Source of the DNA: an uncultured Candidatus Saccharibacteria bacterium
Lineage (GTDB): Bacteria > Patescibacteriota > Dojkabacteria > SC72
NCBI GenBank assembly: GCA_964480345.1
Contig: CAYZNW010000002.1
Coordinates: 524 to 64,523 of the forward strand
DNA: 64,000 nt
Reading direction: 5' to 3'
Part shown: positions 25,569 through 30,126 of the stretch, piece after piece
Layout of the letters: the number at the start of each line of letters is the position of its first letter
Numbering within the stretch: the first letter of the stretch is position 1
The notes under the pieces: model-generated
What the model was told of the DNA's origin: nothing
The model's input: only the letters and a program-made list of their open reading frames with translations
Database searches by the model: none
Position numbers and translations under genes: made by a program

Positions 25569-25853
25569 TTAGAAGAAAGATAACTGATCGAGCTCACCAG
25601 AAGGAAGTATTTTTGCATAATGCATAGGCCAAATAAAATCTTCTTTACATTTGCCATCAGGCATATGTATTACAATATCTTTGTTATACACAGTAAAGTT
25701 GTAAATTAATTCTCCTATATGTACATCTTCTGGACAGAGTGTAACCTCCTTGCCATTCTCATCTAGAAATCTGACTTCATTATACTTCCTAAACGATGTT
25801 CTACTAGGAAAAATCTTTAACAAAGCTGACAATATACCTCGAACAGTTCTCAC
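25569..25853 (-). CDS. hypothetical protein (94 aa)
   Basis: ORF track only. Confidence 0.3.
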   Translation of the reverse strand: MRTVRGILSALLKIFPSRTSFRKYNEVRFLDENGKEVTLCPEDVHIGELIYNFTVYNKDIVIHMPDGKCKEDFIWPMHYAKILPSGELDQLSFF

Positions 25854-26102
25854 TGTAGCCTCCTCTGCTTTAAAAGAACTATTTATTTATCACATATACA
25901 TTATACCATTATTATAGGTTCTAATACAAAATATTAGAATTGAGCAGATAGTGTAGATAGTATAACTTGTAGTAATTAATTATTTAATATCTTTTCTTTT
26001 TGTTACAAATATAACTAGATTCTAACTACACTATGAGATATTGACCAACACCACCTGTTGTTATAGCCTGAATCACTAAGTACAATATGTTGTGTTTTAA
26101 AT

Positions 26103-26552
26103 ATGAAATGTCCGTTTTGTGAGTGTGAAAATACAAAAGTAGTAGACAAAAGAGATAACCGAGATGATGGAACTACAAGAAGAAGGAGACAGTGTCTTAG
26201 ATGTAGTAAGAGATTTACAACATATGAACGAATAGAAAGTATAGATGTAAGTATTGTTAAAAAAGATGGCTCTTTAGAAAAATTTGATCCTATGAAGATA
26301 TCTAAAAGTATAAGGAAAGCTGCTAGTTTGGATAAGATAACTGATGGAGAGATAGAGGATTTCACAGAGGGTATAGAGAGATTAGTGTTAAATAGTGAAG
26401 ATACTATTACTTCGAATCAAATAGGATTGTTGATATTAGATTGGTTAAAAGAGAAAGATCCTTTGGCATATATTAGATTTGCCTCTGTATATAAGAAGTT
26501 TAAGGGTATAGAAGATATTAAAGAAGAGATTAAAAATTTAGAAAAAATATAA
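26103..26552 (+). CDS. nrdR: transcriptional repressor NrdR (zinc ribbon + ATP-cone)
   Basis: MKCPFCECENTKVVDKRD...RRRRQCLRCSKRFTTYE zinc ribbon, followed by an ATP cone. Directly upstream of nrdD. Confidence 0.95.
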   Translation: MKCPFCECENTKVVDKRDNRDDGTTRRRRQCLRCSKRFTTYERIESIDVSIVKKDGSLEKFDPMKISKSIRKAASLDKITDGEIEDFTEGIERLVLNSEDTITSNQIGLLILDWLKEKDPLAYIRFASVYKKFKGIEDIKEEIKNLEKI

Positions 26553-26570
26553 CTTATTACTGTTCACAAT

Positions 26571-28640
26571 ATGGCTGCCCAGAAGAAAAGTAAGACTTCT
26601 ATATTTAAGATACGAAAAAGAGATGGGAGGTTAGTTAGATTTGATAGAGAGAAGATAGAAGTAGGAATATTTAAGGCAGCAGAGGGTGTTGGTGGTAAGG
26701 AGAAAAAAAGAGCTAAAGAGGTTGCAGATGAAGTGATAAAGAGATTAAAGGATAAATACACAGGTAAAAAATATATCAAGACAGAGCAAGTAGCTGATGT
26801 AGTTAAACAAACCCTTCTTGATATGGGGCATACTAAGACCTCTATAGCATTTGGTTTGTTTGTTGATTTGAAGAATCAAGTTAGAAATATTAAGTCTTTG
26901 ATAGATGCAAATACTTTGGTAAAAGACTATATTGATAAGCTAGATTGGCAAATAAATGAGAACAGTAATATGGCTTACTCTTGGCAAGGATTAAATAACT
27001 ACATTTCATCTACTGTTCAATCTAACTATTGGTTACATAGCATATATCCAAAAGATATCTCCAATGGGAATATTAACAAAGATTACCATATTCATGATTT
27101 AGGTATGTTAGCAGCATACTGTTGTGGTTGGAGTTTAGAGGATTTACTACTAAAAGGATTCACTGGAGTTAAGGGTAAGGTGGCTTCTAAGCCTCCAAAG
27201 CATTTTGGAGCTGCACTGGGTCAGTGTGTTAACTTCTTCTATACATTGCAACATGAGGCTGCTGGAGCTCAGGCTTTTTCTAGCTTTGATACATATCTGG
27301 CTCCGTTCATTAGGTATGACAAACTGTCATACAAAGAGGTGAAGCAGAAGATGCAGGAGTTTCTCTTTAATATGAATGTGCCTACTCGTGTAGGATGTCA
27401 GAGTCCTTTTACAAATATTACGATGGATTTAATACCTTCAGGGCAGTTAGCTGATCAGGGAGTTATTATTGGAGGAGTAGTTCAGAAAGAGAAGTACAAA
27501 GAGTTTCAAAAAGAGATAGATATGTTAAATCGAGCTTTCTGTGAGGTTATGATGGAGGGTGATGCTAATGGAAGTCTCTTTTCATACCCTATTCCTACAT
27601 ACAATTTGACCAAAGATTTTGACTGGGACAAGAAAGAATATATCCCTATCTGGCAGATGACAGCAAAGTATGGAATACCGTACTTCTCCAACTTCATTAA
27701 TTCAGACATGAGTCCAGATGATGCAAGAAGTATGTGTTGTAGACTACGATTAGATAATAGAGAGTTAAGAAAGCGGGGTGGAGGTCTTTTTGGAGCAAAT
27801 CCTCTTACTGGGAGTATTGGAGTAGTAACGATAAATTTGCCTAGAATAGGTATAGAAGCAAAGAGTAAGAAAGAGTTCTTCAAGATATTGGATAGTAGGA
27901 TGGATCTAGCCAAAAAAAGTCTGATGATTAAAAGAAAGTTCATAGAGAAATATATGGATATTGGGCTATATCCTTACTCCAGATTCTATCTTGCTGATAT
28001 TAAGAAGAGGTTCGGAGAGTATTACAAGAATCACTTTAATACAATTGGGATATTAGGTATGAATGAGTGTTTAATGAATTTCTTCCATGACAAGAGTAAG
28101 GATATTACTTCAAAAGAGGGTAGAGAGTTTTCTTTGGAAATATTAGATCATATGCGAGATAGGTTGATTAAGTATCAAAATAAGACTAATCAGCTGTTTA
28201 ATTTAGAGGCTACACCAGGAGAGGGAGCTACATACAAATTTGCAAAAGCGGACAGGAAGAAATTTGGTAATCAGATTATCACAGCTTCAGATGTTGGTAA
28301 AACAATGACTGATGTCCCCTATTACACTAATAGTACACAGCTACCAGTAGGACTAACAGATGATATTTTTGAGACATTGGATTTGCAAGATGAGTTCCAA
28401 TGTAAATATACAGGTGGTACTGTCTTACATATTTATCTAGGAGAGAAGGTGTCATCTGCTGAAGCTACAAAGAATTTGGTTAGAAAGATAGCGACTAATT
28501 ACAAGCTTCCATATTTTTCAATTACTCCAACATTTAGTATATGTCCTAGGCATGGATATATATCTGGAGAACATAAGTATTGCCCTGTTTGTGATTCGGA
28601 GAGAGGCTACAAGGAAGGTATGCCTTTTGATGAAGAATAG
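26571..28640 (+). CDS. nrdD: anaerobic ribonucleoside-triphosphate reductase NrdD (class III), core lacking the canonical C-terminal glycyl-radical segment
   Basis: N-terminal ATP cone (IFKIRKRDGRLVRFDREKI). Zn-ribbon-like C-x2-H...CPVC near the C-terminus. The ORF ends ...CDSERGYKEGMPFDEE without the RVxGY...NxGKQ.E...RV motif. Confidence 0.85.
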   Translation: MAAQKKSKTSIFKIRKRDGRLVRFDREKIEVGIFKAAEGVGGKEKKRAKEVADEVIKRLKDKYTGKKYIKTEQVADVVKQTLLDMGHTKTSIAFGLFVDLKNQVRNIKSLIDANTLVKDYIDKLDWQINENSNMAYSWQGLNNYISSTVQSNYWLHSIYPKDISNGNINKDYHIHDLGMLAAYCCGWSLEDLLLKGFTGVKGKVASKPPKHFGAALGQCVNFFYTLQHEAAGAQAFSSFDTYLAPFIRYDKLSYKEVKQKMQEFLFNMNVPTRVGCQSPFTNITMDLIPSGQLADQGVIIGGVVQKEKYKEFQKEIDMLNRAFCEVMMEGDANGSLFSYPIPTYNLTKDFDWDKKEYIPIWQMTAKYGIPYFSNFINSDMSPDDARSMCCRLRLDNRELRKRGGGLFGANPLTGSIGVVTINLPRIGIEAKSKKEFFKILDSRMDLAKKSLMIKRKFIEKYMDIGLYPYSRFYLADIKKRFGEYYKNHFNTIGILGMNECLMNFFHDKSKDITSKEGREFSLEILDHMRDRLIKYQNKTNQLFNLEATPGEGATYKFAKADRKKFGNQIITASDVGKTMTDVPYYTNSTQLPVGLTDDIFETLDLQDEFQCKYTGGTVLHIYLGEKVSSAEATKNLVRKIATNYKLPYFSITPTFSICPRHGYISGEHKYCPVCDSERGYKEGMPFDEE

Positions 28641-28668
28641 ATATATTTAAATTATTTTAAATACTGTT

Positions 28669-28797
28669 ATGAAAAAAGTTACTAGACAAAGATGTGAGAT
28701 ATACTCTCGAGTTGTGGGATATATTAGACCTATATCTCAATGGAATGTAGGAAAACAGGCTGAGTGGTCTGATAGAGTGATGTATAAAATTAAATAG
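28669..28797 (+). CDS. stand-alone NrdD glycyl-radical domain mini-protein (42 aa)
   Basis: Translation MKKVTRQRCEIYSRVVGYIRPISQWNVGKQAEWSDRVMYKIK. It carries the class III RNR glycyl-radical signature RVxGY plus WNxGKQxE...RV. The stop at 28795-97 lies 2 bp before the nrdG ATG. Not in the supplied ORF track because it is too short. Confidence 0.7.
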   Translation: MKKVTRQRCEIYSRVVGYIRPISQWNVGKQAEWSDRVMYKIK

Positions 28798-28799
28798 GT

Positions 28800-29483
28800 A
28801 TGTTACCTATTTACTATTTTGAAAAGGCATCTCTTTTAGATTATCCGAATAAAATATCCATTGTGGTCTTTCTTTACGGATGTAATTTGAGATGTCCATA
28901 CTGTCATAATCCTGAGTTAGTGATTGAGAAGTATGATGTTTCTAAAGTTATATCAGAGAAACAGGTATTAAATTTCCTTAGAAAGAGGCAGGGAAAACTT
29001 GATGGAGTTGTTATAACAGGTGGAGAGCCTTTACTCCATAAAGAGTTATTGGATTTTGTGAAGAAAATAAAAAAGCTTGGTTTTCTAGTAAAACTTGATA
29101 GTAACGGTTTACTTCCGTCCACTTTAAACAAATTTATTAAATCAGGATATATTGATTATGTGGCAATGGATGTCAAATATCCTCTTGTTGGTTATTTGAA
29201 AGAGACAGATAGGAAGAATATAGAGAAATCGATTGATATATTGAGAAATTCAGATGTAGAGTATGAATTTAGAACAACATATGTTAAAGGTATCCATAAC
29301 AACGATTCTGTAGAGGAGATTTGCAAAATGATAAATGGAGCAAAGAGATATTTCATACAAAACTTTCGTGAAGGGAAAAGTATAGACAGCTCTTTAAATT
29401 CGGAAAATAGCTTTACACAGAAAGAATTAAAAGAGTTTAAAAAGATAGCTAAAAAATATATTAAAGATGTGCAGATTAGATAG
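28800..29483 (+). CDS. nrdG: anaerobic ribonucleotide reductase activating protein (radical SAM)
   Basis: CNLRCPYCHNPEL (CxxxCxxC) radical-SAM cluster motif, with GGEPLL. Genomic context nrdD-nrdG. Confidence 0.9.
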   Translation: MLPIYYFEKASLLDYPNKISIVVFLYGCNLRCPYCHNPELVIEKYDVSKVISEKQVLNFLRKRQGKLDGVVITGGEPLLHKELLDFVKKIKKLGFLVKLDSNGLLPSTLNKFIKSGYIDYVAMDVKYPLVGYLKETDRKNIEKSIDILRNSDVEYEFRTTYVKGIHNNDSVEEICKMINGAKRYFIQNFREGKSIDSSLNSENSFTQKELKEFKKIAKKYIKDVQIR

Positions 29484-30126
29484 CTGGATTTTCTAAAACT
29501 TTAATAACTTTTCCATTAATAATACTTTCTGTATTTTTATCTATAAATATAGGCTGGTTAAGTGGGTTTGTAGAGTCTGGATACAAGATTATCATCTCAT
29601 TGTTTTTCCTATATCTCTTAACAGTAGCACCATTTTCTACAATAGCAACAACAATATCGCCATCTTCTATCTCACAATCTTTTTGGATAATTATATATGT
29701 ACCATCTTCGAGTTTCTTACCGTCTATTTCTGCTAAGTCCATTGAATCCCCTTTCACAATCAATGAGAAGAGATTCTCTTTCTTACCAACTATATTTTGA
29801 TCTACCTTCAAAACACCTATATTCTCCTCTTCTGCAGAGACAAGAGGTGTACCTGCATTAGCATAACCAAGAATAGGGATGCCAACAAGATAGTCGTATA
29901 CTATCTCATCATCTTTCTCCACCATATGTATACCCCTAGGTTGACCAGTTCTAAATATATATCCTTTCTTCTCTAAAGCAACAAGATGGCCCACTACTCC
30001 TCTTTTGGTAGAAATGCCGAGTTCGTACTGTAATTCTGATAGAGAAGGAGCAAAACCGTTCTCTAAATAATACTGCTTTATAACTCTTAGAACATTTTCC
30101 TGCTTCTTTGTGAGTATACCATCCAT
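29476..30126 (-). CDS. lexA: LexA repressor (S24 peptidase)
   Basis: N-terminal winged-helix LSELQYELGISTKRGVVGHLVALEKKGYI. C-terminal VKGDSMDLAEI (Ser nucleophile) and a downstream Lys (RYRK). Confidence 0.85.
   Translation of the reverse strand: MDGILTKKQENVLRVIKQYYLENGFAPSLSELQYELGISTKRGVVGHLVALEKKGYIFRTGQPRGIHMVEKDDEIVYDYLVGIPILGYANAGTPLVSAEEENIGVLKVDQNIVGKKENLFSLIVKGDSMDLAEIDGKKLEDGTYIIIQKDCEIEDGDIVVAIVENGATVKRYRKNNEMIILYPDSTNPLNQPIFIDKNTESIINGKVIKVLENPAI

Follow-up and report, generated by a model that had tools for sequence, protein, structure and literature searches.

Can a class III (anaerobic) ribonucleotide reductase (RNR) keep its radical glycine on a polypeptide other than the catalytic chain? 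The question is raised by the nrd locus of an uncultured bacterium of the Dojkabacteria (SC72; named Candidatus Saccharibacteria bacterium in GenBank assembly GCA_964480345.1). The locus lies on a stretch of 64,000 nucleotides of contig CAYZNW010000002.1 (positions 524 to 64,523, forward strand), which is called the window below and within which all positions are given. Four genes stand in a row on the plus strand of this 64-kb window and form one operon: nrdR, an nrdD gene of 689 codons (the core), an open reading frame (ORF) for only 42 residues (the mini-ORF), and nrdG. To our knowledge, all solved and described NrdDs have the radical glycine on the catalytic chain, and glycyl radical enzymes (GREs) have been described as single chains with a radical glycine of their own, the only accepted exception being GrcA/YfiD (and Y06I of phage T4). 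In the window the core ends without the glycyl-radical loop, and the loop is encoded by the mini-ORF. The locus probably specifies an obligate two-piece class III RNR, composed of a catalytic body and a separate radical peptide.

The NrdD profile is cleanly divided between the two ORFs. The core covers positions 1-530 of the 562 positions of Pfam family PF13597 (NRDD; E 2.6e-181, 604.6 bits) and the mini-ORF product covers positions 531-562 (E 2.1e-9, 37 bits), the gathering cut-off being 26.2 bits. With NCBIfam model NF006126 (684 positions) the core matches positions 3-650 (995 bits, cut-off 548) and the mini-ORF positions 648-683; TIGR02487 gives 506.6 bits for the core (cut-off 326). A hidden Markov model (HMM) of 72 fused NrdDs returned the core at 1104 bits and the mini-ORF at 50 bits (E 7e-15), and no further NrdD or radical-domain segment in the 64 kb. 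Pfam and NCBIfam scans (E <= 0.01) matched the mini-ORF product solely to full-length NrdD models; neither a pyruvate formate-lyase (PFL)-type Gly_radical or GrcA model nor a model dedicated to the small protein was seen among the matches. The RVxGY motif is absent from the 689-residue chain, the C-terminal end of which reads ...CPRHGYISGEHKYCPVCDSERGYKEGMPFDEE (final residues before the TAG, ...SICPRHGYISGEHKYCPVCDSERGYKEGMPFDEE), and is present on the separate 42-residue product, MKKVTRQRCEIYSRVVGYIRPISQWNVGKQAEWSDRVMYKIK; both pieces together are complete. Identity of the core is 52-61% to loci outside the Dojkabacteria, fused and split, and 54-60% to the fused NrdDs in alignment A1. By every sequence criterion the locus is a class III RNR, save that the radical motif lies off the catalytic chain. 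A preliminary description of this DNA had held that the nrdD ORF ends after its zinc ribbon without the C-terminal radical motif, and that the mini-ORF is the NrdD C-terminus with the radical glycine; a recheck of the sequence and the profile comparison of both ORFs, which it had proposed, bear this out. Records of the peptide in UniRef and NCBI are named 'hypothetical' or 'uncharacterized'.

The mini-ORF lies in the +1 frame relative to nrdD, beyond an AT-rich spacer of 28 nt, and only two nucleotides, GT, separate its TAG (28795-97) from the nrdG ATG at 28800. All three frames are closed at the junction, by TAG 28638 in the nrdD frame, TAA 28648 in the mini-ORF frame and TAA 28658 in the third frame. 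Spacer, gap and stops agree with the preliminary description in every coordinate. No ORF or Rfam match was found in the 28-nt spacer and no intein motif at the junction, and the spacer folds no better than its shuffled versions (z -0.76). Nor was a terminator-like site found in 25800..29700, hence none between nrdR and nrdG. In the Dojkabacteria clade the spacer measures 17-32 nt and the mini-ORF occupies frame 0, +1 or +2 relative to the core, depending on the species, with a constant peptide start (ATG-M-[KT]-K). Overlaps of core and mini-ORF are frequent in DPANN archaea, in the form of ATGA or TAATG. Lineages that use Shine-Dalgarno (SD) sites, including Woesearchaeota and Halanaerobium, have AAGGAGG at the right distance 5' of the mini-ORF (loci L038, L044, L046 and L039). 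The order in Halanaerobium is core, nrdG (about 700 nt), a GC-rich hairpin, AAGGAGG-7nt-ATG and a 44-residue peptide. The variable frames, the dedicated SD sites and the position of nrdG between the pieces cannot be accounted for by a frameshift, hop or readthrough that joins the two ORFs. The mini-ORF of the window has no SD site, which is unremarkable because most genes of this genome (33% GC) have none.

Two further features of the start region were recorded. A motif T[TA]ACTG[TC] is located 2-12 nt 5' of the starts of both nrdD and the mini-ORF (window 26553-26570 and 28655-28668) and recurs in the spacers of L007, L014, L018, L019, L022, L023, L027, L031, L032, L035 and L040. ACTG was counted by eye upstream of about 8 of the 46 long ORFs of the window, against a rough expectation from composition of about 2.4. 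In a genome with mostly SD-less genes, the motif may serve the lineage as an initiation signal of its own. The peptide gene is found 3' of nrdG in this cultured genus and in MAGs (metagenome-assembled genomes) of related Halanaerobiales, namely in Halanaerobium saccharolyticum (L041:6074-7043) and in L039, L052 and L053; in L041 it is preceded by the hairpin gctgccggcagc with a T-run and has its own AAGGAGG. Judged from this gene order, the Halanaerobium layout would allow separate regulation or dosage of the peptide, and the genus is tractable for experiments.

The split is conserved far beyond the window. The exact 42-residue product with the same neighbours was found in two other sequencing runs, and a 46-residue relative in nrdR-core-mini-nrdG-lexA synteny occurs in GCA_012842045.1 (Candidatus Dojkabacteria) and in three more runs. 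A word-indexed search of 5.8 billion proteins yielded 51 clusters of mini-ORF homologues, all of 39-68 residues. With phmmer at exhaustive scope, 1.84 billion cluster representatives gave 2880 matches (E <= 1e-3); of the best 150, 149 are small proteins (45-126 residues). For a survey of loci, one genome per GTDB species was scanned with the core, and the 80 loci obtained were classed by tblastn and ORF tracing as split (58), fused (20) or cut by contig ends (2). Every classifiable locus of the Dojkabacteria clade is split (29 of 29, with 70-88% identity to the window; two truncated loci were left out), with the same stop-spacer-ATG structure that the preliminary description had proposed to look for in relatives. 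The other 29 split loci belong to Woesearchaeota, Micrarchaeota, Nanoarchaeota, Shapirobacteria, other Patescibacteria and Halanaerobium/Halanaerobiales, and include cultured Halanaerobium saccharolyticum, a Halanaerobium sp. and metagenome-assembled genomes (MAGs) of Halanaerobiales. In the protein database the radical motif is found on 0 of 103 Dojkabacteria-type cores, versus all 112 closest relatives of the fused NrdD of L067. Contigs of 750-760 kb, from small genomes, carry the same split genes, and the position of nrdR upstream of the core is the same in relatives. Because the same layout occurs in independent assemblies and is conserved across lineages, the split is real and is neither an assembly error nor a pseudogene.

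Selection was assessed on 30 distinct mini-ORF sequences of the Dojkabacteria clade over 31 codons. Variable sites number 13, 6 and 30 at codon positions 1, 2 and 3. The ratio of nonsynonymous to synonymous differences per site (pN/pS) is 0.14, with pS at 0.69 (synonymous sites near saturation), and the ratio for the zinc-ribbon segment of the core is 0.11. The mini-ORF is a functional coding sequence under purifying selection. The preliminary description had denied that a simple frameshift or sequencing indel lay behind the split, and it stands on this point, given independent assemblies, 58 split loci out of 80, variable frames, dedicated SD sites and purifying selection. Many peptides of the Dojkabacteria end in a Cys-rich C-terminal tail (CGC, CxxC, CDC or CCC; L001, L008, L009, L011, L014, L017, L018, L021, L035 and L066), and the copy in the window (...MYKIK) has none. 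These tails recall the redox-active C-terminal Cys pairs of class I and II RNRs. Many nrdD cores of the clade also contain an intein of 319 residues between ...PTRVGCQ and SPFTN (L001:1939-4971 and L066), with Cys first, ...GN last and Ser next, and with LAGLIDADG or Intein_splicing Pfam matches in some. Cores with an intein, about 1000-1092 residues long, further include P0205, P0211, P0306 and others; the core of the window is without it, and the insertion site is not that of the break between core and peptide.

Where does the break fall? In structural papers the glycyl radical domain of NrdD comprises, in this order, a zinc site, the glycine loop, which is buried, and a C-terminal tail (PMC11226230; PMC4493059, also for the zinc site). 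The CPRH-x9-CPVC ribbon of the core aligns with CxxxH...CPVC of Thermotoga maritima NrdD, just 5' of the radical loop, and is predicted to bind metal. By this alignment, the part split off is the glycine loop with the C-terminal helix only, and the zinc ribbon stays on the core. A separate cistron for the whole glycyl-radical domain, as given in the preliminary description, holds for the loop and helix and fails for the ribbon, which PMC11226230 counts in the domain. Canonical fused relatives read CPKC-x3-5-CEVYSRVVGY at this place. After CPxC, 44 of 52 distinct tails of split cores have the motif D-x-E-x-G-[YF], which is absent from canonical fused forms. Because it is conserved across phyla, the motif is under constraint and not decaying; as a guess, the tail is a candidate docking site for the peptide. 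The 'ERGY' of the tail had been taken for a degenerate copy of RVVGY. This idea was dropped, as the tails align with it no better than shuffles do (mean Smith-Waterman score 15.2 versus 14.9; 0 of 52 at p <= 0.05). A role of peptide Cys9 (CEVY) as a fourth, inter-chain zinc ligand is likewise unsupported, because the core already has a C-H-C-C set. Cys9 is present in 175 of 183 small homologues; at the corresponding position T. maritima has Asp, and some fused forms have Thr or Asn. The fused NrdD of a Micrarchaeota MAG (L061:4001-6205) keeps a split-type tail and has a linker of about 30 residues, CPVCDREIGYTNMQKVRVSGGDVDQELLEEVEKKRKKCEVYSRVVGY, before CEVYSRVVGY. It represents either a stage that precedes fission or a rejoining of the pieces; from its retained tail and linker, linker insertion and fission therefore appear to be linked events.

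A structure was predicted with AlphaFold2 (AF2) for core and peptide concatenated into an artificial single chain, with an alignment of 147 rows (72 fused NrdDs, 34 split cores and 40 peptides). The mean predicted local distance difference test score (pLDDT) was 83.7 and the predicted template modelling score (pTM) 0.78; prediction without an alignment gave pLDDT 36 and was unusable. Foldseek returned class III RNRs for all of the top 36 matches in the PDB (E down to 4e-31). The core is modelled as an alpha/beta barrel with a Cys-bearing finger-loop segment at the SMCCR motif, which corresponds to the SCCR motif of T. maritima NrdD (PMC4493059). In the peptide, predicted strands 699-704 and 707-710 flank Gly706 (= Gly17) and are followed by a helix (716-722); hairpin and helix are confident. 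The sole low-confidence stretch near the C-terminus spans residues 679-690, which comprise the last part of the tail plus residue 1 of the peptide. Such a model fits a break located in a flexible link at the protein surface.

Radical loops of the NrdD type were also found apart from any core or beside a complete one. A family of stand-alone proteins of 74-126 residues (alignment A2) combines a novel zinc ribbon with the radical loop, as CHDCG ... KCxxC[FY] followed by CEVYSRVVGY, with four invariant Cys and an invariant G-Y (P0057, P0087, P0089, P0120, P0126, P0136, P0156, P0173, P0179, P0184, P0188, P0193 and P0195). No dedicated Pfam or NCBIfam model was seen for this family. One member, P0087 (101 residues, with its own CxxC...CxxC ribbon and radical loop), is encoded on an ENA metagenome scaffold (L088:2-794) after a complete fused nrdD (ending ...CEVYSRVVGYMRPVSQWNEGKQQEFKARKEFKIKTKEL) and before nrdG. 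As judged from gene order and sequence, L088 is a true GrcA-like spare-part layout for class III RNR. On IMG/VR viral contigs, 80 loci were fetched with the A2 family (L090-L169), and a motif scan of these gave 77 radical-loop ORFs, 74 of them below 200 residues. The orphans are of two types, minis of 40-60 residues and zinc-ribbon proteins of 90-135 residues, and some are of the Dojkabacteria type with 40-43 residues (L121, L162). Within 3.5 kb, a long NrdD ORF was found at only 3 of the 80 viral loci (HMM of fused NrdDs) and an NrdG at none (phmmer with the NrdG of the window). Neighbouring genes are those for head morphogenesis, tape-measure/tail-lysozyme, endolysin, helicase, exonuclease and HNH proteins. 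A single-protein scan of viral contigs yielded four NrdDs, all fused. The phage orphans may provide radical domains as auxiliary genes of viruses, much as T4 Y06I does for PFL. Together with L088 and the zinc-ribbon family, they fit a domain that acts in trans.

Other variants of the loop were recorded in the same searches. Two MAGs of Bathyarchaeia (L082, L085) have an NrdD-like paralogue of about 780 residues upstream of, and in tandem with, a normal fused NrdD. It has Ala at the radical Gly site (…CFSR[IV]SAKY[KR]PSSFWN…) and may, by analogy, correspond within the NrdD family to the aminoacyl (alanyl) radical enzymes that were described recently. The small radical-loop proteins P0052, P0060 and P0151 contain an exact tandem duplication of EVYSRVVGY..., either an assembly artefact or a real duplication. 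A giant protein of 4779 residues (P0147) has four stretches that match the 42-residue radical peptide (E 1.6e-9).

In the mechanism proposed for the two-piece enzyme, the 689-residue subunit would provide the ATP-cone, the alpha/beta barrel, the Cys-bearing finger-loop segment and the zinc ribbon, and no radical glycine. The 42-residue peptide, predicted to be translated from its own ATG, would be the missing C-terminal beta-hairpin (RVVGY) and helix, and would dock non-covalently in the barrel at the position of the C-terminus of fused NrdD. NrdG with S-adenosylmethionine (SAM) would abstract hydrogen from Gly17, and the glycyl radical would generate the catalytic thiyl radical as in any NrdD. 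The radical carrier would be exchangeable because it is not tethered, and after oxygen cleavage at the radical glycine a 42-residue peptide would be replaced, not a 730-residue enzyme. For the formate lyase, truncated PFL(1-695) with truncated YfiD reached wild-type kcat once activated (PMC8683613). The radical domain of NrdD is mobile and is invisible in the state bound to dATP (deoxyadenosine triphosphate; PMC11226230). Exchange or repair is plausible as the reason for the split, if short of probable. A bolder reading, offered tentatively, makes the radical loop a diffusible, exchangeable cofactor peptide that would be activated by NrdG on or off the enzyme, swapped after oxygen damage and supplied by phages to boost deoxynucleoside triphosphate synthesis. 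If true, autonomous glycyl radical proteins of the NrdD type would form a large family that has gone unrecognised, with the 42-residue peptide as its minimal member. The proteins would occur in three forms: obligate subunit, true spare part beside a complete nrdD, and phage-borne orphan. The GrcA principle would extend to a second class of GREs, and a class III RNR would have a separation of radical store and barrel like that of class I.

Several points weigh against the two-piece enzyme as proposed. All beyond the two ORFs is inferred, and YfiD bound fully truncated PFL very weakly, with activation 32-fold poorer (PMC8683613). The 42-residue peptide may accordingly need extra binding determinants, for which the D-x-E-x-G-Y tail is a candidate. 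The AF2 model is of an artificial single chain and is no proof of non-covalent docking; MAFFT misregistered the zinc-ribbon knuckle near the junction, and the model says little on the tail because of this. The view of the genome is 64 kb, and a second complete nrdD or an RNR of another class may lie elsewhere in it. In a few relatives with both ORFs in frame (e.g. L013), readthrough of one stop codon could in principle yield a fusion. Finally, a rough neighbour-joining tree, in which split and fused clades interleave, cannot separate one ancient split with refusions from several independent splits.

The main rival to exchange or repair as an adaptive reason for the split is neutral gene fission, which concerns the same question. 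By this account the pieces form a permanent heterocomplex that acts like fused NrdD, with no exchange and no gain in repair or regulation. Split genes are common in the reduced genomes of the candidate phyla radiation (CPR) as well as of DPANN, and the tight operon with its 2-nt gap to nrdG fits stoichiometric co-production. Easy interconversion is further suggested by the interleaving of fused and split forms in the tree and by the tail and linker that L061 keeps although it is fused. However, in Halanaerobium the peptide gene follows nrdG and a hairpin and has a strong SD site of its own, an arrangement that makes separate dosage possible, and the split has persisted across phyla under purifying selection. 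The orphan peptide genes on phage contigs without a core, and the extra radical-domain gene beside a complete nrdD, are intelligible only for a domain that works in trans and is exchanged. Purely neutral fission is considered rather unlikely on this balance.

The remaining rivals question the two-piece enzyme itself. In one of them, the mini-ORF would serve a different, complete NrdD encoded elsewhere in the genome as a spare part like GrcA, and the core here would be inactive or otherwise employed. The layout of L088 is a precedent, and a view of 64 kb leaves room for such a gene. Yet the core is highly conserved, scores 995 bits with the NrdD equivalog model, keeps its catalytic motifs and always adjoins the peptide gene and nrdG in 29 species. 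None of the 103 Dojkabacteria-type cores is complete, no second NrdD is present in the window, and the genomes are small; this account is highly improbable. Less probable still is recoding to one full-length NrdD chain, whether by programmed +1 frameshift, ribosomal bypass of the gap or stop readthrough. The gap is short (28 nt), and in some relatives, such as L013, the two ORFs share a frame with the core stop alone between them. Against this stand the closure of all three frames in the window, spacers in relatives that differ in length (17-32 nt), have little sequence conservation and put the ORFs in all three relative frames, and a spacer without significant RNA structure or Rfam match. The conserved ATG-MKK start, the SD sites of SD-using lineages and the nrdG gene between the pieces in Halanaerobium point the same way. 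In a single sequence, an essential enzyme that is cut short and then followed by the part it lacks has the look of a broken gene. An error of sequencing or assembly, or a pseudogene left by recent breakage of nrdD, is nevertheless refuted for practical purposes by the identical structure from independent samples and assemblers, by conservation across two domains of life and at identities as low as about 52-60%, and by third codon positions that are nearly saturated in a conserved protein. The obligate two-piece class III RNR remains the preferred account of the locus, the features of which are listed in the table.

Table. Features of the nrd locus in the window, with examples of orphan radical-loop ORFs on viral contigs.
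Feature	Position	Strand	Evidence or remarks
nrdR, transcriptional repressor of nrd genes, 149 aa, first gene of the cluster	26103..26552	+	TIGR00244 E 2.6e-41; Pfam Zn_ribbon_NrdR + ATP-cone
nrdD core, class III RNR catalytic subunit, 689 aa without glycyl-radical loop; TAG stop 28638-40	26571..28640	+	PF13597, NF006126
ATP-cone, core residues 13-88	26607..26834	+	PF03477 E 4e-14
SMCCR motif, core residues 387-391, Cys-containing segment corresponding to T. maritima NrdD SCCR	27729..27743	+	alignment consensus ARSMCCRLRLDNRELRKRGGG
Zinc ribbon CPRH-x9-CPVC, core residues 658-674, kept on core	28542..28592	+	aligns with T. maritima NrdD (4coi)
Core tail DSERGYKEGMPFDEE with split-lineage motif D-x-E-x-G-[YF]	28593..28637	+	tail comparison
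Intercistronic spacer, 28 nt, AT-rich, TACTGTT just 5' of ATG	28641..28668	+	sequence
Mini-ORF, glycyl-radical peptide, 42 aa: beta-hairpin with RVVGY + short C-terminal helix	28669..28797	+	PF13597, homologues, AF2
Gly17 codon GGA, predicted radical glycine	28717..28719	+	invariant G-Y (G706/Y707) in 147-sequence alignment
Predicted tryptic peptides of mini-ORF product: VVGYIRPISQWNVGK and QAEWSDR			
nrdG, radical-SAM activase, 227 aa; CNLRCPYC cluster motif 28881-28904	28800..29483	+	TIGR02495 NrdG2 E 1.6e-59; PF04055
lexA, convergent	3' ends of nrdG/lexA overlap 8 nt at 29476-29483	-	
Orphan radical-loop ORFs, examples	L099:3432-3779; L104:3333-3773; L162:3489-3611		

The activase gene at the end of the operon scores 200.5 bits with the NrdG2 model TIGR02495 (cut-off 131). 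The convergent pairing of nrdG and lexA is kept in Dojkabacteria relatives (L001-L006). The region upstream of nrdR (window 26025-26100) contains two AT-rich palindromic segments that resemble NrdR boxes, acactatgagatattg and acaatatgttgtgt. It also has a sigma-70-like promoter, TTGTTA-17-TACAAT, at 26058-26086. The NrdR-box-like segments and the promoter-like site suggest autoregulation of the whole operon by NrdR.

No description of a split between core and radical loop of NrdD was found in the openly searchable full-text literature (subscription-only literature lay outside this scope). This is in keeping with the preliminary description, which knew of no report of the arrangement, and with a 2026 review in which spare-part proteins are known for formate lyases only (PMC13450708). 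Only two PFL spare parts have been validated, and the question whether other GREs have them has been raised (PMC8683613). The split is apparently undescribed and unrecognised, widespread and under selection. It would represent a natural, evolutionarily stable system in which an essential anaerobic RNR has its radical loop on a 42-residue peptide. The spare-part question for other GREs becomes directly testable, also in cultured Halanaerobium. The peptide would be a minimal natural substrate for the study of how activases recognise and extract the radical loop, and it has a bearing on the repair of oxygen damage in obligate anaerobes with tiny genomes. For annotation, the peptide is a 'hypothetical protein' or is missed, and a metabolic reconstruction of a CPR or DPANN organism would take such a core for a defective RNR. 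The phage-borne orphans suggest a new type of viral auxiliary gene.

Among known systems, the closest are the canonical NrdD/NrdG pairs of Escherichia coli, phage T4, T. maritima and P. copri (1h78, 4coi, 8p23, 9d3x), with which the locus shares family and fold. Shared features are the ATP-cone, the zinc ribbon, the RVxGY loop, the T. maritima-type SCCR segment and a cognate NrdG with CxxxCxxC. In canonical NrdD the radical glycine is on the same chain, whereas here the chain stops after the zinc ribbon, and loop and helix are the product of a 42-residue gene. As with GrcA/YfiD and phage T4 Y06I, a small stand-alone protein would give a GRE barrel its glycyl-radical loop in trans and would be activated by the activase of that GRE, as predicted here from the genes, and phage-encoded versions occur in both systems (Y06I for PFL, the orphan NrdD-type genes here). 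GrcA, however, belongs to the PFL-type Gly_radical family (IPR011140), has 127 residues and backs up an enzyme with its own radical domain, whereas the mini-ORF product has matches to the NrdD family only, has 42 residues and is the sole radical site available to its core. Of the 'spare part' analogy drawn in the preliminary description, the separate radical-loop peptide stands, and the role of a spare gives way to that of an obligate subunit of a core without a radical glycine. The two-piece NrdD appears to resemble GrcA/YfiD in its working and is not, by sequence, a member of the GrcA family.

Divided RNR chains have been reported in other classes and in phages. The class II enzyme NrdJa/NrdJb of Pseudomonas aeruginosa is encoded by two adjacent genes, the products of which must associate, and its C-terminal piece has a zinc-finger and tail function (PMC9669993). 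It differs in being B12-dependent, in the size of its pieces, which are both large, and in that a redox-active C-terminal domain is removed, not the radical carrier. Phage RNR genes are interrupted yet functional in Aeh1 (nrdA-a/nrdA-b, with mobE), T4 (group I intron in nrdD), and phiAS4 and Lactococcus phage 949 (fragmented nrdD; PMC3653736). Those breaks involve introns, inteins or homing endonuclease genes, at other positions and in single lineages, whereas the present junction has no mobile element, just a spacer of 17-32 nt; its position does not vary within Dojkabacteria, and inheritance of the split extends over several phyla. Conceptually, the arrangement is like the alpha and beta subunits of class I RNR, in which the stable radical is kept on a polypeptide other than the barrel. 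The class I beta subunit, however, is an unrelated ferritin-like metalloprotein with radical transfer over a long distance, whereas the 42-residue peptide is a homologue of the NrdD C-terminus and is predicted to insert in the barrel.

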